DNA from: Candidatus Shapirobacteria bacterium
Lineage (GTDB): Bacteria; Patescibacteriota; Microgenomatia; UBA12405
Length of the DNA: 64,000 nucleotides
NCBI GenBank assembly: GCA_041661765.1
Contig: JBAZTV010000001.1
Span: 231,983-295,982, forward strand
Direction of reading: 5' to 3'
Shown: positions 3,474 to 21,354 of the stretch, piece by piece
Layout of the letters: every line of letters begins with the position of its first letter
How positions within the stretch are numbered: the stretch's first letter is position 1
Position numbers and translations under genes: made by a program
The notes under the pieces: model-generated
What the model saw: the letters and a program-made list of their open reading frames with translations, nothing else
Databases searched by the model: none
What the model was told of the DNA's origin: nothing

Positions 3474-3791
3474 TTGCCAATATATGACATAATATATGTT
3501 ATGACCACAGTGAACATCTCTATTACCGATAATCAGGCAAAATTTATCGACAAACTCGCCAAAGATTACAATTTTGACAACCGCAGTGAATTAATTCGTA
3601 GTTTCATTCGTCTCTTTCAATTTCGCCCACAATTAATTGACGAAGTTATCGGTTTTCCATTCTCGCTTCCAGACACCAACAGTCGTTCAAAAGTTGTTGA
3701 TAGCTTCAAAGAAACCGGTAAATATTCACCAGAGTTCTTAAAAGATTTAGAAAATGGTTTAAAAAATAGTAAATTTTTTAGCCAAAAATGA
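3474..3791 (+). CDS. ParD-like ribbon-helix-helix antitoxin. The real start is possibly the ATG at 3501.
   Basis: 'ISITDNQAKFIDKLAKDYNFDNRSELIRSFIRL' matches the ParD/RHH pattern. The stop overlaps the start of the next ORF (ATGA). Confidence 0.55.
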   Translation: MPIYDIIYVMTTVNISITDNQAKFIDKLAKDYNFDNRSELIRSFIRLFQFRPQLIDEVIGFPFSLPDTNSRSKVVDSFKETGKYSPEFLKDLENGLKNSKFFSQK

Positions 3792-4036
3792 ATCTAGATT
3801 TTTTAAATAAAGATCAAAAGAAATATTTATCTAGTCATAATCTAATTCATAAATTTGAAAAACAATACGATTTATTTTTAAAAAATCCACATCATCCAAG
3901 TTTAAATTTGGAAATATTAGAACCAAAAAACCGAGGTATCCATAGTTTTAGAATTGACAGAAAATATCGAGTTATTTTTATTTTTAATCCAGATCAAAAT
4001 ATTGAAATACTATTTATAACCAATCATTACAAGTAA
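3788..4036 (+). CDS. ParE/RelE-family type II toxin
   Basis: 82 aa. 'IHSFRIDRKYRVIFIFNPDQNIEILFITNHYK' is typical of RelE/ParE toxins. Overlaps the upstream antitoxin gene by 4 nt. Confidence 0.6.
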   Translation: MNLDFLNKDQKKYLSSHNLIHKFEKQYDLFLKNPHHPSLNLEILEPKNRGIHSFRIDRKYRVIFIFNPDQNIEILFITNHYK

Positions 4037-4673: not shown

Positions 4674-4745
4674 TCGCCCTTAGCTCAACGGTAGAGCAAT
4701 CCGCTGTTAACGGAAAGGTTTTTGGTTCGAATCCAGAAGGGCGAG
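4674..4745 (+). tRNA. tRNA-Asn (anticodon GTT)
   Basis: Hand-folded cloverleaf: 7-bp acceptor TCGCCCT/AGGGCGA, D arm GCTC-AACGGTA-GAGC, anticodon loop CTGTTAA, T arm TTTGG-TTCGAAT-CCAGA, discriminator G. No CCA is encoded. Confidence 0.75.
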
Positions 4746-4784
4746 CGTAATATCACACATATATTTCACATGTATAATTAGATT

Positions 4785-5285
4785 ATGAATTATGACCCAA
4801 TCAATTTTTCTAAAAATTTAGTCAAAGGAAGAATCGCTGAAACATTATTTGAACAGATGCTTCGTGATGCTGAATGTTTTACAATTTTATCTTTTGGTTA
4901 TGAAAACATTATTCCAGAACTTGCTCATCGCCAAGATGATATAAGAGCACAAGAAACAATGGAAATAATCAGACGAGCTCCTGATTTTGCTGTAATAAAT
5001 AATGAGACACATGATGTTTATTTAATAGAAGTTAAATATTTAATGAAACCTGCTGCTAGTACAATTCTTAAAGATGCAGAAAGAATGTTTCAATCTTGGA
5101 AACCATCTTATCTATTTTTAGCAACACCAGAAGGTTTTTATTTTGATAAGGCCAGTGACATTGTTAAAAATAATGGAATTATAAAACCGTTTTATCATCC
5201 ACAAATTTCAAAAGAATTGCAATTAAAATATACTCAACTACTAAATGAGTTTATTGTTCCAACTGAAACGACACCTAAAAACTAA
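4785..5285 (+). CDS. Hypothetical protein with a PD-(D/E)xK nuclease-like signature
   Basis: 'APDFAVINNETHDVYLIEVKY' gives a PD...ExK arrangement, with an upstream acidic residue in 'RIAETLFEQ'. Confidence 0.4.
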   Translation: MNYDPINFSKNLVKGRIAETLFEQMLRDAECFTILSFGYENIIPELAHRQDDIRAQETMEIIRRAPDFAVINNETHDVYLIEVKYLMKPAASTILKDAERMFQSWKPSYLFLATPEGFYFDKASDIVKNNGIIKPFYHPQISKELQLKYTQLLNEFIVPTETTPKN

Positions 5286-5520
5286 TATTGTGATTAGTCA
5301 AAAACTCAAAACAATTTCAAAAAGTGAAGAAGAAACAAGAGAATATTTTAAGCGAAAATATAATTGGGATATAGCAGAGGCTGATTATCAAGAAGTTTCT
5401 CAGTCCATGTATTACTTAGGTAAAGCGATTTATAGAAGTTTACAATTAGAGTACAAAAGTGACTCAGTCAATATTAAAAATAAGAAAATCATTAGGCAAG
5501 ATAGCAGAAAATTTGTCTGA
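5245..5520 (+). CDS. Hypothetical small protein. The start is uncertain; it overlaps its neighbours.
   Basis: ORF only. A possible GTG start at 5291 lies after the upstream stop. Confidence 0.25.
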   Translation: MSLLFQLKRHLKTNIVISQKLKTISKSEEETREYFKRKYNWDIAEADYQEVSQSMYYLGKAIYRSLQLEYKSDSVNIKNKKIIRQDSRKFV

Positions 5521-5656
5521 CGATGAAGTTTTAAAATTAGATACCAAAATGGAGATTTTTGCCAATCTTATTTTAGATAAAATATTATCCTTAACGCCGG
5601 AAGAGAGAAAAATACTTAATGATAAAATTAGAAAAGGAAATTCAAGTTATATTTAA
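5459..5656 (+). CDS. Hypothetical small protein
   Basis: ORF only. Overlaps the previous ORF by about 60 nt. Confidence 0.2.
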   Translation: MTQSILKIRKSLGKIAENLSDDEVLKLDTKMEIFANLILDKILSLTPEERKILNDKIRKGNSSYI

Positions 5657-5674
5657 AATTAAATTAAAAATAGA

Positions 5675-6487
5675 ATGACATCAAATAACGATGAATTATC
5701 AAAAACTTTAAGATGGAGAGTAAAATCTCTTAAAATTTTTGTTAAAGCATTCAAACGATATATCGAAGTCGCATCACCTTTTGTTACTGAGGATAATACT
5801 GAGCTGAATAAGGAATATAAAGATATACAAAGATTTCTAAGCTATTTTGAAGAGCAAATAGAAAATGGTGATGGTGATTATGATTTTGTTGATTTAATAT
5901 TTTTAGGTAAAAGTTGGGGTAAAATTTATGATCTGATGTGGAAATATAATGGTTGGAAAAAACAACTATTTGATGAAAGAGAAAGAATAATCGTTATTAA
6001 AGCAGCTCTGGAAGGTGACAAAAAACATCTTGAAGAAATAAATGAAATACTAAATAATGATTGTTGGTCATTATTTAACAGATGTCCAATTTTAATTGAT
6101 AGTTTTTATAATGTTATTCATCCGAAGACAGATGATCCAATTATTCAACAAGTCTTTAATATTGAAACTTTAAATGGTGTGCTTGCTGGTACAAATAATG
6201 GAATAATTACTCAAAACAATGAAAGTAAAAAAGTATTAAAAGCTATACAAGAAATAACAAATATTCTTGAAAAAGAATATCTTGAAAATAAAAATACACC
6301 GGAGATACTTTCAAATTTACAAGAGATTCAAGGTGAATTACTTAAACCATTTCCTGATAATTTAAAAATGAAAAAAGCTGCTGATGGACTACAGACGGTT
6401 GCAAATATTACTCAGATTGGTTCATTCGCGGTTGCAATCGCACCCCATTTGCAGACAATACAACAATTTATCAGTAAATTTATTTAA
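5675..6487 (+). CDS. Hypothetical protein (270 aa), island cargo
   Basis: Long ORF with no recognisable motif. Its stop overlaps the stop of the convergent recombinase gene. Confidence 0.45.
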   Translation: MTSNNDELSKTLRWRVKSLKIFVKAFKRYIEVASPFVTEDNTELNKEYKDIQRFLSYFEEQIENGDGDYDFVDLIFLGKSWGKIYDLMWKYNGWKKQLFDERERIIVIKAALEGDKKHLEEINEILNNDCWSLFNRCPILIDSFYNVIHPKTDDPIIQQVFNIETLNGVLAGTNNGIITQNNESKKVLKAIQEITNILEKEYLENKNTPEILSNLQEIQGELLKPFPDNLKMKKAADGLQTVANITQIGSFAVAIAPHLQTIQQFISKFI

Positions 6488-8205
6488 TAAATCCCGCATA
6501 CAGCTATTCTTATTTGTTCCAAAGCAGGGAGCATAGACAATTTTTTATCGCACAAACCATCATATTTATTGGTATCTTCCATTAAATCTTTAGGTTCGAA
6601 CACCACATATTTCTTATCATCAGAGTTTTTAAATTCAACAATGTACTGAAGTGGTTTTGTAAGGTTGATTCCAATGATTTTGTCTTTCAATGTTAGGTTC
6701 GAAGATAAAGAAAGCAATATTTGTTTTCTCGTCTCTAAGTCACCATTTTTAAACCAATATTTGGCATAACAAGCAAAGTTAAAAGTTCGTTCTGATAATT
6801 CAACCCATTGATTGACTCGATCACCAGTTTGATTCATCTTTTCTTCCAATTCTTTTTTCTCTTTCATTAATGTTTCTTTTTGACTCTTAAATTCATCGTC
6901 AGACAATAATTCATTGTCGGTGTTTTGTGGCGATATTTTTAATTTAACTAGGTTATCGATTCTATTAACAACTTTTTTATAGTCTTCTTGGAAAGAATCA
7001 ATTGAGGCATTACGGCTGACTTTTTCTAAATCATAAAGTCTGTTTAATCTTTTGATCGCCCAATTTTTAAATCTCTCTGAAATTTGAATTTTTCCCAAAT
7101 ATTCTTCAACTTGTTCCATTAATTTTTCTTCAGTGACACACCCTTGAGTACAGTGAGGGTTTTTACTTTTAGCACAGTGGTAGTAAGTGTAGTGAAGTAA
7201 TTTTGGATTAACCATATTTTCAATCAAAGTTTCACATTTTGGACAAGCTTTTTTATTCATTGAGGCAAATTTCTGTTTACAAACAGGGCAGATTATTTGA
7301 AACTTTTCTTCAGCAGTAATGGCACCGCCACATTCATTGCATTTAATTAACCCAGATGCAAAAAATTCTCTTGTGTGTGGTCGAGGACTACAACCTTTTC
7401 CGAGCAATATTTGTACTCTATCAAAGTCTTGTCGTGTAATCATCGGTTCATGTTTACCTTTATAAATTTTTCCAGCATATTCAAACTCTCCAAAATAAAA
7501 AGTATCTTCAAAGATTTTATAAATTGTTGATCGTGGCATTGGCTTACCACCATATCGTCCATTTTCAGGAGATCGATATCCCATTTCAGTATTAATATAT
7601 CTTTGAATCTTTGGTGGTGACCATGCACCAGTCAGCATTAACTCCCAAGCCTTTTTTATGATTTGGAATCGAATTGGATCAGACTGAATTTTTTTATTTC
7701 CTTTACTAGAATAGCGATCATTCATATAGCCTGGTTTTGCCCCACTTGGTAACCACCCCATTTCAGCCTTAGTTTTTAATCCACGTTTTACATTTCTTGA
7801 GAGGTCGAGAATAAATTGATTTGCCATACCTCCCTCTACATAAAGCATCAAATTATCGATCGTAGTATATGATTTTTGAGGAGTGACAATAACTACTTCT
7901 TTATCATTTACTGCCCATGTTATTGCACCCATATCGATTGGGTTACGATATAGACGATCTAACTTCCAACAAACAATTCCATTAATTTCTCCAGTTTGTA
8001 CTCTAGCCATCATTTTGGCAAATATTGGTCGCCCTGGTGCTTTTGCGGATTTTGATTCAGTGTAAATGTCTTCTTTCTCAACCTTAATGCCACTTCTTTT
8101 TGCCAATTCTTTAAGTTCATTTAATTGGCTATCAATAGAAAGCACCTGTTTATCTTCAGTGTCAGTCGATTTTCTAGCATAAATGACATATTTCATATTT
8201 TCCAT
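6484..8205 (-). CDS. Large serine recombinase (integrase)
   Basis: N-terminal resolvase catalytic domain 'YVIYARKSTDTEDKQVLSIDSQ'. 573 aa, with a recombinase domain and Cys-rich zinc-ribbon region (CNECGG...CPVC...CPKC). Confidence 0.85.
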   Translation of the reverse strand: MENMKYVIYARKSTDTEDKQVLSIDSQLNELKELAKRSGIKVEKEDIYTESKSAKAPGRPIFAKMMARVQTGEINGIVCWKLDRLYRNPIDMGAITWAVNDKEVVIVTPQKSYTTIDNLMLYVEGGMANQFILDLSRNVKRGLKTKAEMGWLPSGAKPGYMNDRYSSKGNKKIQSDPIRFQIIKKAWELMLTGAWSPPKIQRYINTEMGYRSPENGRYGGKPMPRSTIYKIFEDTFYFGEFEYAGKIYKGKHEPMITRQDFDRVQILLGKGCSPRPHTREFFASGLIKCNECGGAITAEEKFQIICPVCKQKFASMNKKACPKCETLIENMVNPKLLHYTYYHCAKSKNPHCTQGCVTEEKLMEQVEEYLGKIQISERFKNWAIKRLNRLYDLEKVSRNASIDSFQEDYKKVVNRIDNLVKLKISPQNTDNELLSDDEFKSQKETLMKEKKELEEKMNQTGDRVNQWVELSERTFNFACYAKYWFKNGDLETRKQILLSLSSNLTLKDKIIGINLTKPLQYIVEFKNSDDKKYVVFEPKDLMEDTNKYDGLCDKKLSMLPALEQIRIAVCGIY

Positions 8206-8270: not shown

Positions 8271-8786
8271 TTAAAAAGGTACCTCCTCATCAGAAAAACT
8301 ACTATTATCATTAGTTTTGTTAGATTCCTTTAAATTACTATTAATATCAACATTAGAAGAACTATTAGAAAAACTATTTTGGGTTTGTTTACTTGCACCA
8401 TTAGAATTATTGTTTTCGCCATTAAAATTCCATCTATCTACTTCAGAAAAATCAATCCAATCATCGTCAGCATTTTTAACAGAAACAACTTTTATTTCGT
8501 AAAAACTTTCTTCTTTTTTTAAAATTAACTCTTTTTTTAATAATTTATTCATTACTCTTGAAACTTTCGTTATTGACCATCGGGTCATTCTAGAAAGGTC
8601 AGCAAGAGTAACCTCTACATGTTTATAATTTTTATGTCTTTTATCCCAGTCATAAAGTGCATTTAATAAATCCCATAATCTATATTCAGAATCATCTAAC
8701 TTAAATTTAAGTGCAGTCAAATGTCTGTCTCTCCTCAAAAATTGGAACCCCTTTTCTAGTCGATAAGCCTTACTACTTGTCTTCAT
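8271..8786 (-). CDS. Hypothetical protein. The N-terminal ~100 aa may be a winged-helix DNA-binding domain; the C-terminal tail is Asn/Ser-rich low complexity.
   Basis: ORF only. Composition and predicted helices. Confidence 0.4.
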   Translation of the reverse strand: MKTSSKAYRLEKGFQFLRRDRHLTALKFKLDDSEYRLWDLLNALYDWDKRHKNYKHVEVTLADLSRMTRWSITKVSRVMNKLLKKELILKKEESFYEIKVVSVKNADDDWIDFSEVDRWNFNGENNNSNGASKQTQNSFSNSSSNVDINSNLKESNKTNDNSSFSDEEVPF

Positions 8787-9007
8787 TTTCCTTTTTTGGC
8801 ATTGCTTTATAAATCACTTGAAAAAGATTTAAAAGCCTTTGCCCTTGTTCTTCTGCCACATCATCGCCAATTTCCTCGCCAAACTCAGCAAGCCATATTT
8901 CTTTGAATTCGTTGAGGTCTTGTTGGTTTAACATTTCGACAGTTAATTAATAACTGTCATATTATGAATCTGTGGAAAGTTACGAGATATGAACAAGTGA
9001 ACAGGTG

Positions 9008-9736
9008 TTACATGTCCACAGCGAGAAGTTTTTTATATCTTTGAATTGATCGTTTTACCCCTTCAACACCAGACACACTCGTTAAAGGATTATTTAATTT
9101 CATCTGTTGTTGTTTTTCTTTTTCTGATAATTCTGATAATGCAATTTGGGCATAACTTTCGCCTTTTACATTTCGCCAATACCAATGTCGATCACGTTTA
9201 ATATTAGTTATATTTTTTGGGTCTTTTAACTCCTTATATATCGGACTCCACAACTCATCTGGCACCAACTCAAACATTTTCTTTTTATAAGTTTCAAACT
9301 TTTTATCAAACAATTCGTTTAATTCTTTTTTGGTCGTAAACTGATCTAAAATAATTGTCATAGTAGTACCAAGAGGATATTTAAACCATTTTTGACTATC
9401 ATAAATCTTGAATTTCACTGGTTTATAATCTTTTAAAGTCACTTTATTTGATAACGTTGCGGCTAACATTACGGATTCAAAACTGGCTGGTCTAGAATAC
9501 TTTGTAGCCAAAAAAGTAATATCGTCTCGTAGTTGTTCAAATTCCTCAGTTGTCGTTTGTTGTAGCCGTTCTGGTGAAGCCAAATAACTATTAAATATAG
9601 TCCTAAGTTCCATTATTTCTTTCAAACAATCAAGTCTGTCTAATACTGTCACTAATTGAAAATATCGATGATTTTCAAATCGATCATCGACTTCTATTGG
9701 GTCAAGATTCATTGATATTAATTTTTCTGTCTTCAC
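9008..9736 (-). CDS. Hypothetical protein (242 aa)
   Basis: ORF with no recognisable motif. Confidence 0.4.
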   Translation of the reverse strand: MKTEKLISMNLDPIEVDDRFENHRYFQLVTVLDRLDCLKEIMELRTIFNSYLASPERLQQTTTEEFEQLRDDITFLATKYSRPASFESVMLAATLSNKVTLKDYKPVKFKIYDSQKWFKYPLGTTMTIILDQFTTKKELNELFDKKFETYKKKMFELVPDELWSPIYKELKDPKNITNIKRDRHWYWRNVKGESYAQIALSELSEKEKQQQMKLNNPLTSVSGVEGVKRSIQRYKKLLAVDM

Positions 9737-9810: not shown

Positions 9811-11463
9811 ATGAGCAATAAGATTTATATAAAGCAAGTTAATATTGAAAACTTTAAATGTTTTAAAGGTAATTTTAATTTACCTTTAAATGAAGGCCTT
9901 AATATTATTGTCGGCGACAATGAGGCAGGTAAATCTACAATTTTAGAAGCAATTCATTTGGCATTAACAGGATTATTAAATGGAAGATATTTAAAAAACG
10001 AATTAACACAGTATCTGTTTAACCACGAAGTAGTCGATGAATATATTAAAAAAGCAAATACGGGAGATAACCCACCACTGCCATATATTTTAATCGAAGT
10101 TATTATTGCAGGCGAGGATTTATCAAAATTTGAAGGAGATAACAATTTTGAAGGGAAAAAAGAGTGTGGTATTTCTTTCAAGATTGGATTTGATGATAAA
10201 TATAAACCAGAGTATGAAGAATTTATTAAAAATGGAGACATTAAAACTATTCCTATTGAATATTATGATATTTTTTGGACTTCCTGTGCTCGTGATAATA
10301 TCACCGCAAGGAGCATACCAATTAAGTCTGCACTAATAGATTCTTCAAGTAATCATTATGAAAACGGCTCTGATATTTATATTTCAAGAATTATTAAAGA
10401 TAATTTAGAAGAAAAAGATAAAGTAAATATATCTCAAGCATACAGAAGAATGGTGGATAGCTTTATGTGTGATAATTCCGTAAAAGAAATTAGTAAAAAA
10501 ATTAAAACTGATGCAAATATTTCCACAAAAAGAGTTGAATTGTCGGTTGGTTTGTCGTCAAAAAACAGTTGGGAAAGTAGTTTAATGACTTACTTTGATG
10601 ACATACCATTTCACTACATTGGGAAAGGGGAGCAATGTATCGTAAAGACAAAATTAGCTCTAAGTCATAAAAAATCACAAGAAGCAAATATTCTTCTTCT
10701 TGAAGAACCAGAAAATCATCTTTCACATACAAAACTTAATCAATTAATTAATGAAATCAAGGAAAGTAATAGTGAAAAACAAATAATAGTTTCCACTCAT
10801 AGTAGTTTTGTGGCAAATAAATTAGGATTAGGAAATTTAATTCTATTAAATAATAAAAAAACAGTAAGATTAAATAATTTAAATGATGATACTAAAATTT
10901 TTTTTGAAAAACTCTCAGGATATGACACACTTCGTCTTATACTTTGTCAAAAGGCTATTTTAGTGGAAGGAGATTCTGATGAATTAATAATTCAAAAAGC
11001 ATTTTTAATTCAAAATGGTATGTTACCAATTGAATGCAACAAAGGAATAGATGTTATCTCTGTCGGAACAACATTTTTGAGATTTTTAGAAATTGCAAAA
11101 GAAATTGATAAATCAGTAGTAGTGGTGACAGATAATGATGGAAAACCAGATGGTGTAAAAAATAAATATACAGATTATCTCGGTGAAAATGCCAAAGATT
11201 CTATCAAAATTTGTTTCGATGAGGATGTTGATACTGGAGTATTGGAGATTGATGGAAAAGCTTTTAATTACAACACCCTTGAACCAAAAATGTTAAAAGC
11301 TAACAGCTTAGATTCTCTTAATAAAATTTTTGGAACAAATTACCAAAATACTGATGATTTACACAAATATATGCATGCGAAAAAAACTGAATGTGCTCTG
11401 AAAATATTTGAAACCAAAGAAATTGTAAAATTTCCAAAATATATTCAAGACGCAATAGCATAG
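9811..11463 (+). CDS. gajA: OLD-family ATP-dependent nuclease: N-terminal ABC-type ATPase plus C-terminal Toprim. GajA-like.
   Basis: Walker A 'GDNEAGKST' with the leading 'IENFKCF' strand typical of AAA_21/OLD proteins. C-terminal Toprim 'ILVEGDSDELIIQKAF' and 'VVVTDNDGKPD'. Confidence 0.7.
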   Translation: MSNKIYIKQVNIENFKCFKGNFNLPLNEGLNIIVGDNEAGKSTILEAIHLALTGLLNGRYLKNELTQYLFNHEVVDEYIKKANTGDNPPLPYILIEVIIAGEDLSKFEGDNNFEGKKECGISFKIGFDDKYKPEYEEFIKNGDIKTIPIEYYDIFWTSCARDNITARSIPIKSALIDSSSNHYENGSDIYISRIIKDNLEEKDKVNISQAYRRMVDSFMCDNSVKEISKKIKTDANISTKRVELSVGLSSKNSWESSLMTYFDDIPFHYIGKGEQCIVKTKLALSHKKSQEANILLLEEPENHLSHTKLNQLINEIKESNSEKQIIVSTHSSFVANKLGLGNLILLNNKKTVRLNNLNDDTKIFFEKLSGYDTLRLILCQKAILVEGDSDELIIQKAFLIQNGMLPIECNKGIDVISVGTTFLRFLEIAKEIDKSVVVVTDNDGKPDGVKNKYTDYLGENAKDSIKICFDEDVDTGVLEIDGKAFNYNTLEPKMLKANSLDSLNKIFGTNYQNTDDLHKYMHAKKTECALKIFETKEIVKFPKYIQDAIA

Positions 11464-11465
11464 AT

Positions 11466-12656
11466 ATGCACGGTAATAATAAATTAATTATTGCTGTTGC
11501 CGGCTCTGGTAAAACAACCTTTCTTATAAATGAAGCACTTAAGAAGAAAGATGGCCACATACTTATAACTACTTATACAATTGCAAATTGTGAAGAAATA
11601 AGAAAAAAAATTATTAAAAAAAGTGGTTATATTCCTCAAAATATAGAAATACAAACTTGGTTTTCACTTCTAATTCAACATGGAGTAAAGCCATTCCAGT
11701 CACATTTTGATAAAGGATTATCAGACTTTAAAATAAAAGGACTACTTTTAACTAATACAAAATCTGCAGTTAAATATACGAACTCAAAAGGGATACCAGT
11801 CTGTTATGAAGAATCTGAAATAAAAAAACATTTTTTTACACCAAACAATAGAATCTATTCTGATAAACTCGCAAAGTTTGTTGTCGGTGGTGGAGATAGA
11901 TTTAGAAAAACAAAAGAAAGAAAATTTTTTGTCGATCTTATGATTAATCGGCTATCAAAAATTTATTCAGATATTTATATTGATGAAGTTCAAGATCTGG
12001 CTGGGTATGATTTGATTTTTTTACAATACCTTTTTAAAAGTTCAATCAATGTTTTGATGGTTTGTGACCCAAGGCAAGTAACATATTTAACTCATCATGA
12101 AACAAAGTTTAAACAATATAAAGATGGAAAAATTAAAGAATTTATCAAAACTGATAACAAAAAATATTTTAAGGATGAAGATATTGACGAAACTTCCCTA
12201 AGGGTTTCACATAGAAATAATAATGCTATCTGTAAATTGTCTTCAAAATTATTTCCAGAATACGTTTATTCTGAACCTTGTACTTGTTTTGAATGTAGAA
12301 AATCTGACAGTGAAGATCACATTGGAGTTTTTATAGTCAAAAAATGTGATGTCAAAAAATATCTTTCCACTTATAATCCAATGCAGTTAAGAGACAAAAA
12401 AACAGTATTGGTTAATGAAAAATTTGATGTTGCAAATTTTGGCGAATCCAAAGGATTAACTTTTAATAGAGTTCTTATTTATCCAACAAAAGAATTTATC
12501 AAATGGTTAAAAGACGATAAGTATAAGTTAGCCCCAACAAGTAGATCGAAATTCTACGTCGCCATAACAAGAGCAATTTACAGTGTCGGAATTATTTGTG
12601 ATGAAAAAATAGAGATTGCAGATGTGAATGAATTTATAAATACATTACCAAATTAA
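11466..12656 (+). CDS. gajB: UvrD-like helicase, GajB-like
   Basis: Motif I 'AVAGSGKTT', motif II 'IDEVQDLAG', C-terminal 'FYVAITRA' (motif VI-like). It sits 2 nt after the OLD-family gene. Confidence 0.7.
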   Translation: MHGNNKLIIAVAGSGKTTFLINEALKKKDGHILITTYTIANCEEIRKKIIKKSGYIPQNIEIQTWFSLLIQHGVKPFQSHFDKGLSDFKIKGLLLTNTKSAVKYTNSKGIPVCYEESEIKKHFFTPNNRIYSDKLAKFVVGGGDRFRKTKERKFFVDLMINRLSKIYSDIYIDEVQDLAGYDLIFLQYLFKSSINVLMVCDPRQVTYLTHHETKFKQYKDGKIKEFIKTDNKKYFKDEDIDETSLRVSHRNNNAICKLSSKLFPEYVYSEPCTCFECRKSDSEDHIGVFIVKKCDVKKYLSTYNPMQLRDKKTVLVNEKFDVANFGESKGLTFNRVLIYPTKEFIKWLKDDKYKLAPTSRSKFYVAITRAIYSVGIICDEKIEIADVNEFINTLPN

Positions 12657-12665
12657 TAGTTCTTT

Positions 12666-12890
12666 CTATAATCTAAATAACTCCGAAACATCAACTTTCA
12701 ATTTTTTAGCAATCTTTAAGAGTACTTCCATTGATGGATTTATTCTTCCTTGTTCAATGTGGCCGATATGAGTTCTACTTAAACCCAAAGCTTCAGCAAA
12801 TTCTTCCTGACTCTTGTAGCCAATTTGTTTTCTTAGTTTTTGAATAGTCTTTCCCAACCTTTTAGTAACCTTTCTCTTTGTTATAACCAT
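12666..12890 (-). CDS. XRE-family helix-turn-helix transcriptional regulator
   Basis: 74 aa. 'LRKQIGYKSQEEFAEALGLSRTHIGHIEQGRINPS' is a Cro/C1-type HTH. Confidence 0.75.
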   Translation of the reverse strand: MVITKRKVTKRLGKTIQKLRKQIGYKSQEEFAEALGLSRTHIGHIEQGRINPSMEVLLKIAKKLKVDVSELFRL

Positions 12891-13007
12891 GCTTGGATTA
12901 TGTCTAGCTATGAGGAGAAACTCTACTAGCTTAAAGCGAGCAATTAGGTATAAATAATGTATAATCTCGTTTAGAAGTCCTATTACAAATTTTTTAATAT
13001 AAACAAT

Positions 13008-13286
13008 ATGACCAACCCTTATTGGGACAAGATTAAAAAAACTGTGTCAGAGATTGATAATCTTGTTAATAACAATTCAAAGAAAGACATCCAATTTAAG
13101 AAACCAACAAAAATATTTTTTGGCAAAAAATGTCTCAAGTGTAATAGTCGTAATGTCAAAACTATAAAAGCTGGATTTATGAAACATCTAATGCAACAAA
13201 ATGTTGCCATTTGGGTACCAGGAGCCAAAATATCAAAACCTTTAAATGTTTGCCGTGATTGTGGTTTCTCTTGGGAAGACCGTTAA
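13008..13286 (+). CDS. Small zinc-ribbon protein (CxxC...CxxC)
   Basis: 'CLKCNSRN' and 'CRDCGF' Cys pairs. Confidence 0.4.
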   Translation: MTNPYWDKIKKTVSEIDNLVNNNSKKDIQFKKPTKIFFGKKCLKCNSRNVKTIKAGFMKHLMQQNVAIWVPGAKISKPLNVCRDCGFSWEDR

Positions 13287-13287
13287 T

Positions 13288-13305
13288 TGTCTCGTAGCCG
13301 AGACA
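13288..13305 (+). terminator. Hairpin TGTCTCG-TAGC-CGAGACA immediately after the stop of the zinc-ribbon gene
   Basis: Perfect 7-bp stem with a 4-nt loop. There is no strong T tract, so terminator function is uncertain. Confidence 0.3.
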
Positions 13306-13535
13306 GATGAAATAGTAAGTACCAATTTATATACTATTGTATAGGACTATATAATATATAATGGAAACATAGGTAATAACTCTCAGGAAGTCGTTTGAAA
13401 AATAAAGCAGACTCAATTATAGATTTAACTATTAAAACTTATTCTACGAGGCTACATGAAGCCACAATAGTGTTCTTAATTAAATACCAAGAATAGTTTT
13501 GTTGATTATCATTAGTTTCACTTGGAAAGATAAAC

Positions 13536-13559
13536 ATTTGTCACGCAGGCGTGACAAAT
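13536..13559. promoter_or_regulatory. Perfect 11-bp inverted repeat ATTTGTCACGC-AG-GCGTGACAAAT, 25 nt upstream of the methyltransferase start
   Basis: Read directly from the sequence. Its position suggests an operator or transcript-end structure for the restriction-modification module. Confidence 0.4.
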
Positions 13560-13583
13560 TAAAAACATGTTCAACTTGGGTCC

Positions 13584-14924
13584 TTGTTTCCCAAACAAAA
13601 CACAAATATAATTAAGAAGATGAATAGTAAATTTACTTTTATAGATCTGTTTGCTGGTATCGGTGGATTTAGAATCGCATTAGAAAGATGTGGTGGTAAA
13701 TGTTTAGGTTTTTCTGAAATAGAACCCAAAGCTATTGAGACCTATAAAGAAAATTTCATAAAAAAGAATGACAATGAGTGGGAACTTGGCGATATACAAA
13801 AAATAAATAAATTACCTACACCAGTTGATGTAATTGTCGGTGGTGTGCCGTGTCAGTCTTGGTCTGTCGCTGGGAAAATGAGAGGATTTGAAGACCCACG
13901 CGGTAAATTATGGCACGATGCTATAAGATTAGTGAAATTAAACAGACCAAAAGTTTTTGTATTTGAAAATGTCAAAGGATTAGCCGATCCAAGAAATAAA
14001 GAGAATTTAAATCTTATAGTTAATAGTTTTAAAGAATTAGGTTATACCATACCAACTCCTCAACTTTTAAATTCATATGATTTTGGTCTTCCACAAAATA
14101 GAGAAAGAATATTTATTGTTGGTTTTAACAATGATGTCATTTCTGATTTAAATTTTTCTTATCCCAAAAAACGTAATATTGAATTTAGATTATCAGATTT
14201 TCTAGATGGTCTTGAACAAAAAACCGTTATAAAGAAAAAAATAAATCCAAAAGAATTATTTGACGGTAAAATACCTCTATCAAGAAATAAATTTCAAGTA
14301 AATGATGAATTAAATGATTTTTTTGTCTTTTGTGACGCTAGGAATGGTCACAGTACTATTCACTCTTGGGACCTTATTCCAACTAGTAATAGAGAAAAAG
14401 AAATTTGTTATGCCATAATGAGAAATCGTAGAAAAAAAGTTTATGGGGAAAAAGATGGTAACCCATTAGGATTTAAGGATATTGATGACCTAGTTTCTAA
14501 CCTTAAAAAAGAAGAATTAGAAGGGTTAGTTCTTAAAAGAATACTTAGAAAAGTAGAAGGTGGAAAATTTGACTTGGTAAACTCAAAAAATTCTTCTGGT
14601 ATTAATGGAATCTATCGGGTATTTTTACCAAATTCAAAAATATTTTCTACTATCACTGCCACTGGAACTCGTGATCATGTCGCTACTGTCACAATAAGTG
14701 GTCGCACCCCAGAAGAATATCGACGAAATTTCATTAAAAAAGTGTATGAAAAAGGGAATTTTAGACAAATTACTCCAAGAGAGGCCGGATTATTACAGGG
14801 GTTTGGACATAATTTTAAACTTAACAGACAAGATAGAATCTCCCTTAAACAATTTGGTAATGCTGTTTCAGTAAATGTTGTCTATGCTCTAATGGAATCT
14901 ATAATTAAGACTGGTATTTTTTGA
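13584..14924 (+). CDS. DNA (cytosine-5)-methyltransferase
   Basis: Motif I 'FIDLFAGIGGF', motif IV 'GGVPCQSWS', motif VI 'ENVKGL'. Confidence 0.9.
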   Translation: MFPKQNTNIIKKMNSKFTFIDLFAGIGGFRIALERCGGKCLGFSEIEPKAIETYKENFIKKNDNEWELGDIQKINKLPTPVDVIVGGVPCQSWSVAGKMRGFEDPRGKLWHDAIRLVKLNRPKVFVFENVKGLADPRNKENLNLIVNSFKELGYTIPTPQLLNSYDFGLPQNRERIFIVGFNNDVISDLNFSYPKKRNIEFRLSDFLDGLEQKTVIKKKINPKELFDGKIPLSRNKFQVNDELNDFFVFCDARNGHSTIHSWDLIPTSNREKEICYAIMRNRRKKVYGEKDGNPLGFKDIDDLVSNLKKEELEGLVLKRILRKVEGGKFDLVNSKNSSGINGIYRVFLPNSKIFSTITATGTRDHVATVTISGRTPEEYRRNFIKKVYEKGNFRQITPREAGLLQGFGHNFKLNRQDRISLKQFGNAVSVNVVYALMESIIKTGIF

Positions 14925-14946
14925 ATAAATAAGCCATAATCAGGAT

Positions 14947-15669
14947 GTGATAAGCGAAAAACAAAAAAGTGAATTTTTATTGCGTTTAGGTAAATGGGTA
15001 ACCGATGATTTTGCCAAAAAATATGAGAATAATATTAGAAAATGTTCAAAATTATCAGAGTTTAAGGTTAATCCGCTACTTTTACCATTTCTTTCTCTCA
15101 CTTTTACTGGGAATGTTGATCCAGAAAGTTTAGCCAAAGTCCTAGTTTACCCACGAGTACTCAGCACTTCAATTACCACTACATTTGGAACAGGATTACA
15201 GAGATTTATAACTGATGCTTGGAATGAAATCTGTGGAGGATCTGGTTTATCTGGAATCGATATAGAATTTACAGATCAGATTGAAGGTGGTAAAAAATAT
15301 GCTCAAATTAAACTTGGGCCAAATACCATTAATAAAGATGATGTGAAGACTATTACTGATCATTTTAAGGGTGCACTTAATTTAAGTAGGACAAATAATC
15401 TTAAAATTAAACACGAAGACTTAGTTGTTGGTGTTGTTTATGGTAAAGAATCGGAGAAGAACGCCAACCTTAAAAAATTAGATACAGAATACACAGTCTT
15501 AATAGGTCAAGATTTTTGGTATCACTTAACTGGTGACAAGGATTTTTATAATGAAATGAAGAAAACAATATTTACCTCGTCAGAAAAAATATGTCTAAAA
15601 GATGATATTGAAAAAGCTATTAAAGAACTATCAAAATCTATTAACAAAGACAGAATTTTATCAGCTTAA
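14947..15669 (+). CDS. Candidate cognate restriction endonuclease (uncharacterised 240-aa protein directly downstream of the methyltransferase)
   Basis: Position only. A possible D...ExK arrangement in 'GIDIEF...YAQIKLG'. The start codon is uncertain (GTG). Confidence 0.35.
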   Translation: MISEKQKSEFLLRLGKWVTDDFAKKYENNIRKCSKLSEFKVNPLLLPFLSLTFTGNVDPESLAKVLVYPRVLSTSITTTFGTGLQRFITDAWNEICGGSGLSGIDIEFTDQIEGGKKYAQIKLGPNTINKDDVKTITDHFKGALNLSRTNNLKIKHEDLVVGVVYGKESEKNANLKKLDTEYTVLIGQDFWYHLTGDKDFYNEMKKTIFTSSEKICLKDDIEKAIKELSKSINKDRILSA

Positions 15670-16836: not shown

Positions 16837-17286
16837 TTATTTACCTAACCTTTCCAATATTTGTTTCATTTGACCAATCTCTGATTGCTGAGAGGGAATA
16901 ATTTTTTGACACAATTGTTTAATTTCAGGATCATCAAAAGATGCGTTCTTACACATTAATATTGCTCCAGAATGATGAGGAATCATAGATTTTAAAAATT
17001 GCTTATTATCTATTGCAGTCTGTTTTCTAATAAAAATAAAAAATAATATAAATATAGAAATACCGACACACATTAAAACATTTTTAGTTAAGTTTTTATA
17101 CATAACACCCATAAATAAAATTTCCAAGATCAACATCGGAGCAGTCATAATTCCGGCCATATATAATTGATTTAAATTGGGGTATATATCAACAAATTTA
17201 TAAACCATAACATACATTAGTATGTACATAGCCAAAAAATGGAGAAATACCATCAGTGATAAACCGACAAAAGAAGTATGTTTCAT
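16837..17286 (-). CDS. DUF305-like membrane protein (metal-resistance-associated family)
   Basis: 'MIPHHSGAILMC' resembles the DUF305 MxxHHxxAIxM motif. N-terminal transmembrane segments. Confidence 0.45.
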   Translation of the reverse strand: MKHTSFVGLSLMVFLHFLAMYILMYVMVYKFVDIYPNLNQLYMAGIMTAPMLILEILFMGVMYKNLTKNVLMCVGISIFILFFIFIRKQTAIDNKQFLKSMIPHHSGAILMCKNASFDDPEIKQLCQKIIPSQQSEIGQMKQILERLGK

Positions 17287-17288
17287 AA

Positions 17289-17498
17289 TTATCGTTTTAA
17301 TTTTTTATTAGTTTTAACCCCAAATAATTTATAGACTAAGCAAAATCCAGTTAATCCAGTAAAGATCGCTAATATCCCAATTACCAAAGCTACTATTTGT
17401 AGTGTTCCAGTAAATACAAATAAAGCCAGCCATAAGACCACCACTCCTACTACCAATCTTATTTTTTTATCCGTTTTACTTTCATTTTGTTGAAACAT
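17289..17498 (-). CDS. YgaP-like / DUF2892 small transmembrane protein
   Basis: 69 aa with two transmembrane helices and 'GFCLVYKLFG', typical of DUF2892. Confidence 0.5.
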   Translation of the reverse strand: MFQQNESKTDKKIRLVVGVVVLWLALFVFTGTLQIVALVIGILAIFTGLTGFCLVYKLFGVKTNKKLKR

Positions 17499-17670
17499 AT
17501 TTTTATTTAATTAATAATTTTTATCATCTACTTTTAATGATTCCATAAAATTATTAAATTTTCTTCAACATTTTTAAAAACAGTTCTGCTCAACGAGCCA
17601 ATCAAACCTCACCCATATCTTTAAGGATTTTTTTATAGAAATATTTTTTATAAAGAATTTAGATTATACT

Positions 17671-18042
17671 TTGTATATGAACAAACAATTTTTCAAAGAT
17701 GCTCTAGATTGGGGATTTTTACTGTGGTTATCTGGTTATGTTCTCGGCATTATTCTTTTTATGATTATTCCCAAACCATATCTCGGTTGGATTATTATGC
17801 CAATTGGTAGTGCGTTTACACTTTGGGTTTTATTTAAAAAAATAAAAAATAATTCTCTTAAATATTATTTTTTATTAGCTTTTAATTGGGCATTAATCGC
17901 TATCATTTGTGATTATTTTTTTCTGGTAAAACTTTTTAAATCCACCGACTATTATTCATTTCATATTTATCTCTATTATTTCCTAACTTTTGTCTTTCCG
18001 TTATCTGTTGGTTTGTACAAGAACATTGGTAAAAAAAGATAA
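17671..18042 (+). CDS. Hypothetical membrane protein
   Basis: Four predicted transmembrane segments. Confidence 0.35.
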   Translation: MYMNKQFFKDALDWGFLLWLSGYVLGIILFMIIPKPYLGWIIMPIGSAFTLWVLFKKIKNNSLKYYFLLAFNWALIAIICDYFFLVKLFKSTDYYSFHIYLYYFLTFVFPLSVGLYKNIGKKR

Positions 18043-18300
18043 TTGTATTATCATAAAGAAATGAAAACAGAAAATAAAAAAACAGAATGTTGTTGTGAAG
18101 AAAAAATCGTTGTTAAAAAAAATAAGTGCCATTGTACTAGTGGTGGTTCTAACGCAATTTATGGGTTGGGAGTTATTGGTGCTCTCTTTTATTTTCTAAA
18201 TACTGCTACCAGTTTTAGTTTAGTTTTAATTGGAATTGGAAAATCAATTTTTTGGCCAGCTATTTTGATGTTCAAACTACTGACTTATCTTCAGATGTAA
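18043..18300 (+). CDS. Cys-rich small membrane protein (CCC...CHC)
   Basis: 'TECCCEEK...KCHCTSGG', then two transmembrane segments. Sits upstream of the ArsR gene. Confidence 0.35.
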   Translation: MYYHKEMKTENKKTECCCEEKIVVKKNKCHCTSGGSNAIYGLGVIGALFYFLNTATSFSLVLIGIGKSIFWPAILMFKLLTYLQM

Positions 18301-18347
18301 TTTTTTAACATTAAATTCTTGCCAAATAATTTTAAAAGTCGTATCAT

Positions 18348-18629
18348 ATGAACATGCATTCATATGATAATAAGGAATTATCTACCTTACTTAAATTAAT
18401 TTCTGAGAACAGCCGTCTTCAAATTTTATATCTTCTCCAAAAAGGGGAGTATTGTGTTTGTAAATTAATAAAAGAAACCAAATTATCTCAAAGTCTTATT
18501 TCTCATCATCTAAAAGATCTAAAAAATGTAGATTTAGTTTCCAAAAGAATTGATGGTAAATGGTCTCATTATTCTCTTACTCCAAAAGGTCAAGAAATTA
18601 CTAATTTAATTTTTAAAATAAAAATATGA
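18348..18629 (+). CDS. ArsR/SmtB-family transcriptional regulator
   Basis: 'LQILYLLQKGEYCVCKLIKETKLSQSLISHHLKDLK' is the ArsR HTH with the CxC metal site. Confidence 0.8.
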   Translation: MNMHSYDNKELSTLLKLISENSRLQILYLLQKGEYCVCKLIKETKLSQSLISHHLKDLKNVDLVSKRIDGKWSHYSLTPKGQEITNLIFKIKI

Positions 18630-18859
18630 AAATCCAAGTTTTAGGTTCAGGTTGTCCAACCTGTAAAAATCTTTACGAATTAACTAAAACTGCTGTTTCA
18701 GAGTTGGGGATTGATGCTGAAGTTGAATATTCAACCGATATTTCCAAAATTATTGAGCTTGGTGTCATGCAATCACCAGTTCTCACTATTAATAATAAGG
18801 TTACTATGCTTGGATCTGGTAGTTTAGAAAAAATTAAAGAAATTATTAAAAAAGCCTAA
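18626..18859 (+). CDS. Thioredoxin-fold 'redox-active disulfide protein 2'-like
   Basis: 77 aa, N-terminal 'VLGSGCPTCKN' CxxC motif. Typical partner of ArsR and a permease. Confidence 0.7.
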   Translation: MKIQVLGSGCPTCKNLYELTKTAVSELGIDAEVEYSTDISKIIELGVMQSPVLTINNKVTMLGSGSLEKIKEIIKKA

Positions 18860-18861
18860 CT

Positions 18862-20214
18862 ATGGACATTTTTTACCCAATCCAACTTTTAGCCAATTAT
18901 ATCTCCCAAAATCCAGCCATTAATTTCTTTATTTACGACACCATTAAGATTGGCCTTCTTTTAGTTTTTATTAATTATTTAATGGCCATTACTCGCTATT
19001 ATTTTTCTATTAATAAAACTAGAGATTTATTAATCAAAAGACGTTGGTTTGGTCTTGATTATTTATTTGCCGCACTTTTAGGAGTGGTTACTCCTTTTTG
19101 CTCTTGTTCTTCAATTCCTTTATTTATTGGTTTTTTAAGTGCCGGAATTCCACTTGGAGTAACCTTTGCCTTTTTAATTGCCTCACCATTAGTCAACGAA
19201 TCATCTTTAATTTTATTCCCCGCTCTCTTTGGTTGGCAAACAACCATTATTTATAATGTTGCTGGAATTATTTTAGCCGTAGTTGGTGGCATGATTATTC
19301 AAAAATTACATTTAGAAAAATATATTAATCACCAATTATTGAAATATAAATGTCGTTGTGACATTGAAGCTGAAAATGGTGGTCAAAAAATAAAATTAAA
19401 AAAACTTCTCGGTTATTGGTGGGCTGATGGTTTCAAAATTACCAAAAGTATTTTCCCTTATGTTCTTTTAGGTGTTGGTCTTGGAGCTATTATCCATGGT
19501 TTTGTTCCAGCCAATTTTTTTGAAAAATATTTATCAATAAAAAGTTGGTGGACAGTTCCACTTGCTACTCTTATTGGTGTTCCTCTTTATGCCAATTCAG
19601 TTACAGTTATCCCAATTATTGAAGCCCTTATTAACAAAGGTGTACCAATGGGAACCGCTCTTGCTTTTATGACTGCTACCGTTGCACTATCTTTACCCGA
19701 GGCTCTAATACTCAAAAAAGCCATGAAGTGGCAATTATTAGCCATATTTTTTGGTGTTACCACCATTGGTATTATGTTAATTGGTTATCTTTTTAATTTT
19801 ATTCAATATAATCCAAAAGAAAAAATAGCCTCAGTTAATCAACAGCCCATTCCTGCTAAAACAGTAAATACCTCTCTGCCTTCTGGTTCTGAAAAAATTG
19901 AAGTTTTTGTTTTTCATACCACCAATCGTTGTCTTTCTTGTATTAATATTGGCAAATATACTAAGACAGTTATTGAAGAAAAATTCCCTCAAGATTTCAA
20001 ATCTGGAAAAATTACTTTTAGGGAAGTAAATATTGACTTGCTAGAAAATTTTAAAATGGCTCAAGAATATAAAGTTAGTGGCTCAGCTCTTTTTATTAAT
20101 GCCATTAAAGATGGCAAAGACAATCACGAAGAGGATACAACTGTTTGGCGTTTGGTTACCAATGAGGCTCAAATGAAGTCTTATTTTGAAGCCAAATTAA
20201 GAAAATTACTTTAA
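18862..20214 (+). CDS. Permease (COG0701/DUF318-type) with a C-terminal thioredoxin-like CxxC domain
   Basis: Polytopic membrane core. C-terminal ~110 aa 'FVFHTTNRCLSCINIGKY...' looks like a fused thioredoxin-fold domain. Confidence 0.55.
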   Translation: MDIFYPIQLLANYISQNPAINFFIYDTIKIGLLLVFINYLMAITRYYFSINKTRDLLIKRRWFGLDYLFAALLGVVTPFCSCSSIPLFIGFLSAGIPLGVTFAFLIASPLVNESSLILFPALFGWQTTIIYNVAGIILAVVGGMIIQKLHLEKYINHQLLKYKCRCDIEAENGGQKIKLKKLLGYWWADGFKITKSIFPYVLLGVGLGAIIHGFVPANFFEKYLSIKSWWTVPLATLIGVPLYANSVTVIPIIEALINKGVPMGTALAFMTATVALSLPEALILKKAMKWQLLAIFFGVTTIGIMLIGYLFNFIQYNPKEKIASVNQQPIPAKTVNTSLPSGSEKIEVFVFHTTNRCLSCINIGKYTKTVIEEKFPQDFKSGKITFREVNIDLLENFKMAQEYKVSGSALFINAIKDGKDNHEEDTTVWRLVTNEAQMKSYFEAKLRKLL

Positions 20215-20217
20215 TCT

Positions 20218-20919
20218 ATGGAATGGCTAAATTATTTAATCGATACCTACAATATTCCACTTCTGTCTGCTTTTCTGATTGGAATAATGGCTTCCATTAG
20301 CCCTTGCCCCTTAGCAACCAACATCACCGCCATCGCTTTTATTTCCAAAGATATTAAAAGTTCACGTCAAACTTTATTAAATGGTCTTTTTTACACCTTA
20401 GGTCGAGGAATTAGCTATACATTACTTGCCACTCTCATTTATTGTGGTCTTTCATCCTTTTCCATTTCCTCAATTTTTCAGGGTTGGGGAGATAAAGCTC
20501 TTGGTCCAGTTCTAATTTTAATTGGCTTAATTATGGCTGATATTATTAAAATTAATTTTAAAAATAGCAATCCAAAAATTGAGCAATTAAAACTTTGGTT
20601 ATCTAAAAAAGGTTATATTGGTTCACTTCTTTTAGGCATGCTTTTCGCTTTGGCTTTCTGTCCTTACAGTGGAGTCTTATTCTTTGGAGTTTTAATTCCC
20701 ATGGTTTTAAAATCTAACGAAAGTCTTTTATTATCACCATTATTTGCACTTGGGACAGGATTACCAGTCATAGTTTTTTCTTTTATCATTGCTTTCAGCG
20801 CCAATAAAATTGGTTCAACTTTTTCTAAGGTTTCTCAAGTAGAAAAAATAATCCGAAAAATCACCGCCACGATTTTTATTATTATCGGGATCTATTATTT
20901 GAAGAATTTATTGCTTTAA
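20218..20919 (+). CDS. CcdA/DsbD-like thiol:disulfide transmembrane electron-transfer protein
   Basis: Cys in transmembrane helices: 'SISPCPLA' and 'FCPYSG'. Confidence 0.6.
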   Translation: MEWLNYLIDTYNIPLLSAFLIGIMASISPCPLATNITAIAFISKDIKSSRQTLLNGLFYTLGRGISYTLLATLIYCGLSSFSISSIFQGWGDKALGPVLILIGLIMADIIKINFKNSNPKIEQLKLWLSKKGYIGSLLLGMLFALAFCPYSGVLFFGVLIPMVLKSNESLLLSPLFALGTGLPVIVFSFIIAFSANKIGSTFSKVSQVEKIIRKITATIFIIIGIYYLKNLLL

Positions 20920-21269
20920 TCTTTTTGTTCTTTCTTGATAGTTTTCCAGTGGTAGAGATAAACAGGGATACCAATTAGGATCATTGATAACGAATTTGAA
21001 AATTGTCGCTTACGTTGGTTTGATTGTTCTTGTTGATTTCTTTTTTCCATCTCTTCTGGAGAAATTGTTTGTTTTTCTTGGATTACTGGATCACTATAGT
21101 AAGTATATTCAGAAACTTTAAAAACATAATTTTTCATTCCCAAATCAACCAGCTGAACACTTCCGATTATAGTAATTAAAAGACCTACAAAGGAAAATAA
21201 GTATAGATATAAAAGACGGATATTAAATTTCATTATTATAAAAAGTATAACATTTAAATAATTTCCCAA
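20916..21269 (-). CDS. Hypothetical small membrane protein
   Basis: ORF only. Confidence 0.3.
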   Translation of the reverse strand: MGNYLNVILFIIMKFNIRLLYLYLFSFVGLLITIIGSVQLVDLGMKNYVFKVSEYTYYSDPVIQEKQTISPEEMEKRNQQEQSNQRKRQFSNSLSMILIGIPVYLYHWKTIKKEQKD

Positions 21270-21354
21270 ATTTACTTAAAATGATAAGTGGGCTGACATA
21301 CAGTTTTTATTATTTTTTAATAAATATTTTTTTATTATAGATTATAATAATTCC

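Follow-up and report, generated by a model that had tools for sequence, protein, structure and literature searches.

We have analyzed a 64,000-nucleotide (nt) stretch of the genome of a Candidatus Shapirobacteria bacterium (assembly GCA_041661765.1, contig JBAZTV010000001.1, positions 231,983 to 295,982; hereafter the window), and specifically the interval 4785-6487, in which four open reading frames (ORFs) of the + strand lie between a tRNA gene and the gene of a large serine recombinase (LSR). The GC content of the stretch is about 29-30%. The tRNA-Asn(GTT) gene (4674-4746, +) was detected by ARAGORN and was the sole match in an Rfam scan (63.5 bits). It is followed by ORF1 (4785-5285, 166 amino acids, aa), ORF2 (5245-5520, 91 aa), which overlaps both the end of ORF1 and ORF3 (5459-5656, 65 aa), and ORF4 (5675-6487, 270 aa). 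The LSR gene (6484-8205, 573 aa) is on the - strand, convergent with ORF4, and overlaps its stop by 4 nt. All these coordinates and gene calls agree with an initial annotation, which had described the four ORFs as a cargo cassette of an integrative element and as a candidate for a small-nuclease-based defence or anti-defence module. It had also placed a Gabija-like pair and a restriction-modification module after the recombinase, and both were confirmed by PADLOC and Pfam. The reading that we consider probable is a different one, in which ORF1 is a conserved stand-alone nuclease gene and ORF2 to ORF4 form the variable margin of a mobile element inserted beside it. The interval would be a junction between two unrelated things and not one cassette.

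ORF1 is predicted to code for a solitary PD-(D/E)xK nuclease of the Candidate Phyla Radiation (CPR). The AlphaFold2 model (predicted local distance difference test, pLDDT, 89.3; predicted template modeling score, pTM, 0.84) has the canonical alpha-beta-beta-beta-alpha-beta order, and the protein combines the core fold of the superfamily with its conserved catalytic residues. The motif 'APDF ... IEVK', from which a nuclease of this type had been proposed, is present as D67 followed by E82-x-K84, with a spacer of 12 aa and not of 13. E19, D67, E82 and K84 were invariant across 45 close homologues, which had 46 invariant columns in all, and in 30 diverged members of the family (down to 23% identity) E19, D67 and K84 were found in at least 90%. 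Since the residues are kept in both sets, the objection that the motif might be lost in homologues falls away, and the assignment to PD-(D/E)xK nucleases stands by fold as well as by catalytic residues. In the model, helix 1 carries the glutamate, strand 2 begins with the aspartate and strand 3 has the ExK, so that E19/D67/E82/K84 have the arrangement of the usual metal-binding active site. The family has besides a conserved insertion of 25 residues between strands 1 and 2 (FGYE..PELA...MEIIRR; residues about 37-63), and ORF1 carries a C-terminal extension of roughly 60 residues. Family length is uniform, and the 45 close homologues were free of any fused sensor or specificity domain.

The place of ORF1 within the superfamily is less precise. 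Scans against Pfam, NCBIfam, PHROG and PADLOC gave sub-threshold matches only, none of them significant. The Tn7 TnsA-like endonuclease family (PF08722) was matched weakly by 18 of the 30 diverged relatives, with a best E value of 1.7e-5. The Pfam Hjc model matched neither ORF1 nor any of these 30 relatives, sequence-profile searches of the PDB with two ORF1 alignments returned chance-level matches without any Hjc, and a fold search of BFVD gave only weak generic nuclease matches. As membership of Hjc does not hold at the sequence level, we have filed ORF1 only under the PD-(D/E)xK superfamily. Judged by these comparisons it is a distinct unannotated family inside the superfamily, for which neither Pfam nor NCBIfam has a model. 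A literature search on CPR Hjc-like nucleases and on CPR serine-recombinase elements found nothing relevant.

Apart from its motif, ORF1 had been taken as unrecognizable. Actually, it belongs to a very large and conserved CPR family that is found also in housekeeping contexts. A search of 5.8 billion proteins returned 848 matches; the best 120 of them were 67-98% identical and 160-212 aa long, nearly all between 160 and 176 aa. The named sources of these best 120 were mostly CPR (Shapirobacteria, Paceibacterota and Minisyncoccales), with one labelled Oligoflexia and others given as 'bacterium', and Doudnabacteria were also represented among the genome loci of ORF1. In an exhaustive search using 50%-identity representatives the family comprised 350 clusters, the most distant relatives being about 24% identical. 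Between CPR classes the identity is around 70%. We also counted the substitutions in ORF1, ORF2 and ORF3 with respect to a single relative, L015 (L numbers designate the comparison loci that carry ORF1- or ORF4-family genes), and these samples are small. The L015 copy of ORF1 is 98% identical and differs by 24 synonymous and 2 non-synonymous changes. ORF1 is under strong purifying selection.

The ORF1 locus set comprised about 68 distinct loci. Between them, DNA homology was restricted to ORF1 and broke sharply at both ends, and an all-against-all clustering of the neighbors within 4 kb in 68 distinct loci did not detect any conserved partner gene. Some of the contexts were clearly housekeeping, such as the release factor RF1-ORF1-ribosomal protein S2 arrangement of L071, or L009, where ORF1 lies between DnaX/tRNA-Gln and MgtC/HD/DinB genes. 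The position directly after a tRNA, which had suggested the cargo site of an integrative element, is real in the window and peculiar to it; no such adjacency was found in 13 other scanned ORF1 loci, where the only tRNA found was the tRNA-Gln of L009, about 1.4 kb upstream. Viral contigs and phage collections gave no match to ORF1. In L012 a truncated and diverged ORF1-family paralogue, corresponding to the first ~60 residues (7667-7837), lies ~160 nt upstream of the intact gene, which suggests gene replacement or decay at that locus.

In our proposal, ORF1 stands alone as a gene, probably a chromosomal one, and codes for a small Mg2+-dependent PD-(D/E)xK endonuclease. Its presumed activity and substrate would be those of a structure-specific DNA nuclease (of the Hjc/RecU/TnsA type) that acts on branched or damaged DNA, in cell maintenance and not in immunity. 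The maintenance role is favored because of the extreme conservation, the purifying selection, the uniform size, the solo occurrence, the housekeeping contexts and the absence from viral and phage collections.

What does recur beside ORF1 are serine recombinases. They were the commonest family of neighbors, present in 8 of the 68 locus groups, and the only strongly recurrent one, for which reason the flank of ORF1 looks like an insertion hot spot. The number of recombinase genes per 100 kb was about 4 within the first 2.5 kb from ORF1, 0.7 between 2.5 and 5 kb and 2.4 between 5 and 10 kb, far above the genome-wide expectation, which we assumed to be a few per megabase. Pairwise identity among the recombinases near ORF1 is just 23-38%, while ORF1 keeps 70-98%. 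The distance to a convergent LSR is also variable. In the window three ORFs are found between ORF1 and the LSR gene, in L032 and L039 a single gene (a Pfam Endonuc_Holl protein and a peptidoglycan-binding protein, respectively), and in L016 nothing at all, as a different convergent LSR ends 26 nt past the ORF1 stop, in an element that has a type I restriction-modification system. The recombinases of L028, L043 and L052 are divergent and just upstream of ORF1. A search past the ORF1 stop revealed no junction motif common to the loci. Most simply, ORF1 can be read as a conserved gene of the chromosome with an insertion hot spot at its flanks, perhaps containing a bacterial attachment site (attB). 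Serine-recombinase elements and other variable genes would have landed there repeatedly, which would explain why ORF1 seems to 'lead' the island. The intervening gene of L032 (10491-10949, 152 aa) matches Endonuc_Holl ('endonuclease related to archaeal Holliday junction resolvase') with an E value of 4e-34 and is a second Hjc-like nuclease, unrelated to ORF1, at an ORF1-LSR junction.

The comparison with L015 separates ORF4 from the genes before it. Positions 4765-5635 of the window (ORF1, ORF2 and most of ORF3) align to L015 without gaps at 93% identity, and a second block of homology, with 88% identity, covers 6484-6533, where the LSR gene has its 3' end. Instead of ORF4, L015 has between those flanks an unrelated 478-aa gene with a SEC-C motif. 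This exchange between the same flanks indicates that ORF4, an all-helical accessory protein, is a swappable single-gene cargo beside the recombinase; it would occupy a variable slot for one gene at the recombinase gene 3' end. Proteins of ~475 aa with a SEC-C motif are found downstream of ORF1, separated from it by one or two small ORFs, in both L015 (10856-12292) and L007 (6903-8327), two loci of unrelated lineages; the proteins have in common only the N-terminal SEC-C motif of 23 residues.

The ORF4 family is rare, with 8 relatives that became 11 when a profile search added three, and no match was found in viral contigs or plasmids. The homologue of L002 is at the edge of a tyrosine-integrase element, that of L085 is inside an LSR element and that of L001 closes a block of unannotated genes beside a SIR2-like gene. 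ORF1, ORF2 and ORF3 were absent from five ORF4-family loci (L001-L004 by tblastn, L085 by its called genes). When the ORF4-family loci and about 68 ORF1 loci were examined by tblastn for recurrence of the four-gene set, only L015 had ORF1 to ORF3, with ORF4 replaced as described above. The only defence-database signal for the proposed module was a weak and partial one, in which residues 160-270 of ORF4 match positions 157-273 of the PADLOC profile PDC-M14B (E 5e-8), that is, only the C-terminal half; the L001 homologue matches the same profile (E 7e-7). No PDC-M14A partner was detected among ORF1 to ORF3, the LSR, the backbone genes of the element or the neighbors of the ORF4 homologues in L001-L003. 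These sequence matches argue weakly for ORF4 being a distant relative of PDC-M14B, over the C-terminal half only. Most likely, it is an accessory or defence-type effector acting alone, without ORF1 to ORF3. Regarding the L001 block, the SIR2-like protein (6922-7980; PADLOC SIR2, E 3.5e-8) is immediately upstream of the ORF4 homologue, which stands at the end of five unannotated genes of 191-806 aa, and the whole is possibly a multi-gene defence locus.

ORF2 is doubtful as a gene. Its sole relative is in L015, where the amino acid identity (84%) is lower than the nucleotide identity (93%), and in the segment belonging only to ORF2 we counted 2 synonymous versus 10 non-synonymous changes without any codon-position bias, so that the coding status it had been given finds no signal in this small sample. 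It had no significant family match, with only a weak, sub-significant PADLOC match to PDC-M23A (E 0.002). ORF3 is probably protein-coding, a small protein of the type found in recombinase elements. The segment exclusive to ORF3 showed 7 synonymous versus 5 non-synonymous changes, 8 of the 12 at third positions, and the product is similar to the 88-aa protein encoded immediately upstream of the LSR in L039 (z 7.5; 0 of 500 shuffles). Significant matches to ORF3 were absent from Pfam, NCBIfam, PHROG and PADLOC.

A different small protein, of 53 aa, is coded at 8773-8934 on the - strand, and the hidden Markov model of its family (p53 family hereafter) recurs beside serine recombinases in L032 (12664-12870, -) and L015 (2861-3052, -), and a member is found directly after ORF1 in L007/L008 (L007 6610-6795, +). 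Members have 50-70 aa and the motif EF..IW..EF...[SG]..[ED]A......LL.L..V.Y, with no match in Pfam or PHROG. This family is possibly a recombinase accessory or directionality factor. By eye, ORF2 and ORF3 had also given the impression of being members; this was statistically unsupported and only the likeness of ORF3 to the L039 protein stood.

In an integrative element, ORF2/ORF3 and ORF4 would make up the arm nearest to the recombinase. The ORF at 6484-8205 has the architecture of a large serine recombinase, with Resolvase (PF00239, E 3e-22) and Recombinase (PF07508, E 3e-8) domains above the Pfam cut-offs, a weak zinc ribbon below it (Zn_ribbon_recom, PF13408, E 0.0015) and a match to the PHROG 95 integrase (E 3e-64). 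Relatives of the LSR were not found in viral contigs (IMG/VR). After it, at 8271-9736 and also on the - strand, come a 171-aa winged-helix protein that is replication-protein-O-like (PHROG 678, E 5e-7), the 53-aa p53-family protein and a 242-aa protein, and with the LSR these would form the element backbone. The cargo would be the Gabija pair (9811-12656, +), composed of GajA (550 aa; PADLOC E 9e-221, 732 bits; Pfam AAA_15 and OLD-like TOPRIM) and GajB (396 aa; PADLOC E 5e-127, 422 bits; Pfam UvrD-type helicase), and a type II restriction-modification pair (13584-15669, +), made up of a C5 cytosine methyltransferase (Pfam DNA_methylase, E 3e-81) and an EcoO109I-family endonuclease (RE_EcoO109I, E 1e-29). 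Annotation as far as about 16 kb showed no structural phage genes. The element is an ordinary LSR-type integrative island with Gabija and type II restriction-modification cargo. The earlier idea of mobile-element cargo thus holds for ORF4, which behaves as such, and for the genes to its right, which are a defence island bounded by the recombinase, but is not supported for ORF1.

The boundaries of the element are more difficult to place. A search for attachment-type direct repeats across 4.5-30 kb gave only AT-rich chance repeats, and an exact-protein look-up of the flanking phosphatase for an empty site returned only the same strain. Scans for promoters, terminators and inverted repeats were uninformative in DNA of 29% GC. 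The left boundary may precede ORF1, or follow either ORF1 or ORF3.

Several observations weigh against our proposal of a chromosomal ORF1 beside a landed element. With neither an empty site nor an attachment sequence found, the left end can be set on either side of ORF1 or after ORF3, and the homology with L015, of uniform identity, extends from a point just 20 nt before ORF1 through ORF3, a pattern that would also fit ORF1 to ORF3 travelling with the element. The recombinase density expected as background in CPR genomes is an assumed value. Recombinases are found on both sides of ORF1, near and far, which does not fit neatly with one oriented attB. Besides, in three distinct loci (L058 10471-11250, L059 10456-11235 and L064 2096-2863) ORF1 is followed after 0-12 nt by a DpnI-like gene ('Dam-replacing family'), and GmrSD-type genes are just upstream of ORF1 in L018 and L059. 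Given these restriction-gene neighbors, ORF1 itself may have a defence role. We still favor a conserved stand-alone ORF1 with a variable element edge beside it.

A bolder proposal, which we hold as tentative, is that ORF1 represents an undescribed, very highly conserved CPR-wide Hjc/TnsA-like family whose 3' (and 5') flank is a shared landing pad, a conserved 'safe harbour' of these reduced genomes, for many diverged LSR elements and restriction-type genes, where the nuclease might process recombination intermediates or control the elements. The neighbors just mentioned can be read in another way, with ORF1 as a solitary and widespread restriction-type or modification-dependent defence nuclease located in defence islands, and not beside a hot spot. 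To the DpnI-like and GmrSD genes can be added an N6 methylase (L057), an Mrr protein (L007) and the type I restriction-modification system of L016, and the fold is of the restriction-endonuclease type. However, defence genes tend to evolve fast and to be patchily distributed, while ORF1 is extremely conserved and under strong purifying selection over deep CPR divergence, has a uniform length without fused sensor or specificity domain, appears in housekeeping contexts and has no PADLOC match. We consider this unlikely.

Neither do we give much weight to ORF1 being the terminal gene of serine-recombinase elements, as an accessory nuclease or a recombination-directionality-type factor, which we judge quite improbable. 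There is a precedent in Anabaena, in which XisH (with an endonuclease-like fold) and XisI are needed for the XisF-mediated excision of the fdxN element, and serine recombinases are indeed the only strongly recurrent neighbors of ORF1, with the L015 homology running from just upstream of ORF1 through to the recombinase gene. Yet most ORF1 loci with flanks of 8-10 kb have no recombinase, and where there is one its distance and side vary; the disparity between the identities of ORF1 (70-98%) and of the recombinases (23-38%) speaks against co-evolution; viral collections gave no match; and the match to XisH was weak, well below that to Hjc. Finally, that ORF1 to ORF4 form one nuclease-based defence or anti-defence module, carried as cargo by an integrative element, is very improbable and largely refuted by the lack of co-occurrence of the four genes elsewhere (the examined ORF4-family loci lack ORF1-3 and the ORF1 loci lack ORF4), in spite of their shared strand and tight, overlapping packing between tRNA and recombinase in a defence-rich island, the nuclease fold of ORF1, the weak match of ORF4 to a PADLOC defence candidate and the SIR2-like gene adjoining one ORF4 homologue, and it is further countered by L015, which swaps ORF4 for an unrelated gene and keeps ORF1 to ORF3, by a conservation of ORF1 that far exceeds that of any known defence gene, by its housekeeping contexts, by the lack of coding signal in ORF2 and by PADLOC, which has no model for ORF1 or ORF3 and for ORF2 only PDC-M23A at E 0.002.

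Other features of the window deserve mention. The genes to the left of the tRNA-Asn are ordinary chromosomal ones, including a primase, a sigma-70 factor, a NUDIX protein, a histidine phosphatase and a pair formed by a ribbon-helix-helix (RHH, CopG-type) antitoxin-like ORF (105 aa) that overlaps a HigB/RelE-like toxin ORF (82 aa) at 3474-4036, a probable type II toxin-antitoxin pair. In the gap between GajB and the methyltransferase (12656-13584), gene calls made on an identical contig (L087) gave a helix-turn-helix regulator of 74 aa (HTH_31/HTH_3), probably the controller of the restriction-modification pair, and a 92-aa ORF. After the restriction-modification genes, the region 16837-23772 codes for a DUF305 protein, an ArsP-type permease, a DsbD-like membrane protein, a DUF5671 protein and a P-type cation ATPase, and could be metal-handling cargo or the resumed chromosome. 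Just beyond, at 23825-25966, there is an ORF of 713 aa without Pfam match, with three imperfect direct repeats of 31 nt at 24197-24349.

The proposed four-gene defence cassette is therefore not supported as a unit and is not worth pursuing as one. The main interest that remains, a modest one, is in an abundant, unannotated and very highly conserved CPR nuclease family and in its apparent role as a landing site. An identity of ~70% between CPR classes implies an important role in the cell, among organisms that are difficult to study, and if a conserved attB lies in the ORF1 flank it might be an entry point for CPR genetic tools. ORF4, for its part, exemplifies a rare single-gene cargo moving between CPR mobile elements and distantly related to the PDC-M14B candidate.

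Among the known systems, archaeal Hjc (PDB 1gef, 2wcw, 1hh1) and the related RecU are among the closest to ORF1, the core of which looks Hjc/TnsA-like. Hjc differs in giving no sequence-level match and in lacking the C-terminal extension of ~60 residues, and the insertion between strands 1 and 2 also sets ORF1 apart. TnsA (PF08722) is likewise a PD-(D/E)xK nuclease, is linked to mobile DNA and is the only Pfam family repeatedly matched by ORF1 relatives; however, the window protein itself was unmatched at E values up to 1, and ORF1 is solo, with neither a TnsB/TnsC-type partner nor the TnsA C-terminal domain. In the case of ORF4 the comparison is with PDC-M14, a two-gene candidate (FAM_02625>>FAM_00494) from the 'guilt-by-embedding' screen of Payne et al. 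(bioRxiv 10.1101/2024.01.29.577857), where it was predicted because it is embedded in known defence systems. The profile lengths are alike (261-275 aa) and ORF4, as the PDC genes, is found among defence genes, but only the C-terminal half matches and the A component was not found beside ORF4. The element as a whole is comparable to the SCCmec-like or phage-like LSR islands with defence cargo. It differs in having no structural phage genes. As in those islands, which insert beside or within conserved genes, the recombinase gene is at one end, beside small genes of regulatory or replication type, and the defence cargo comes next, together with a variable gene slot.

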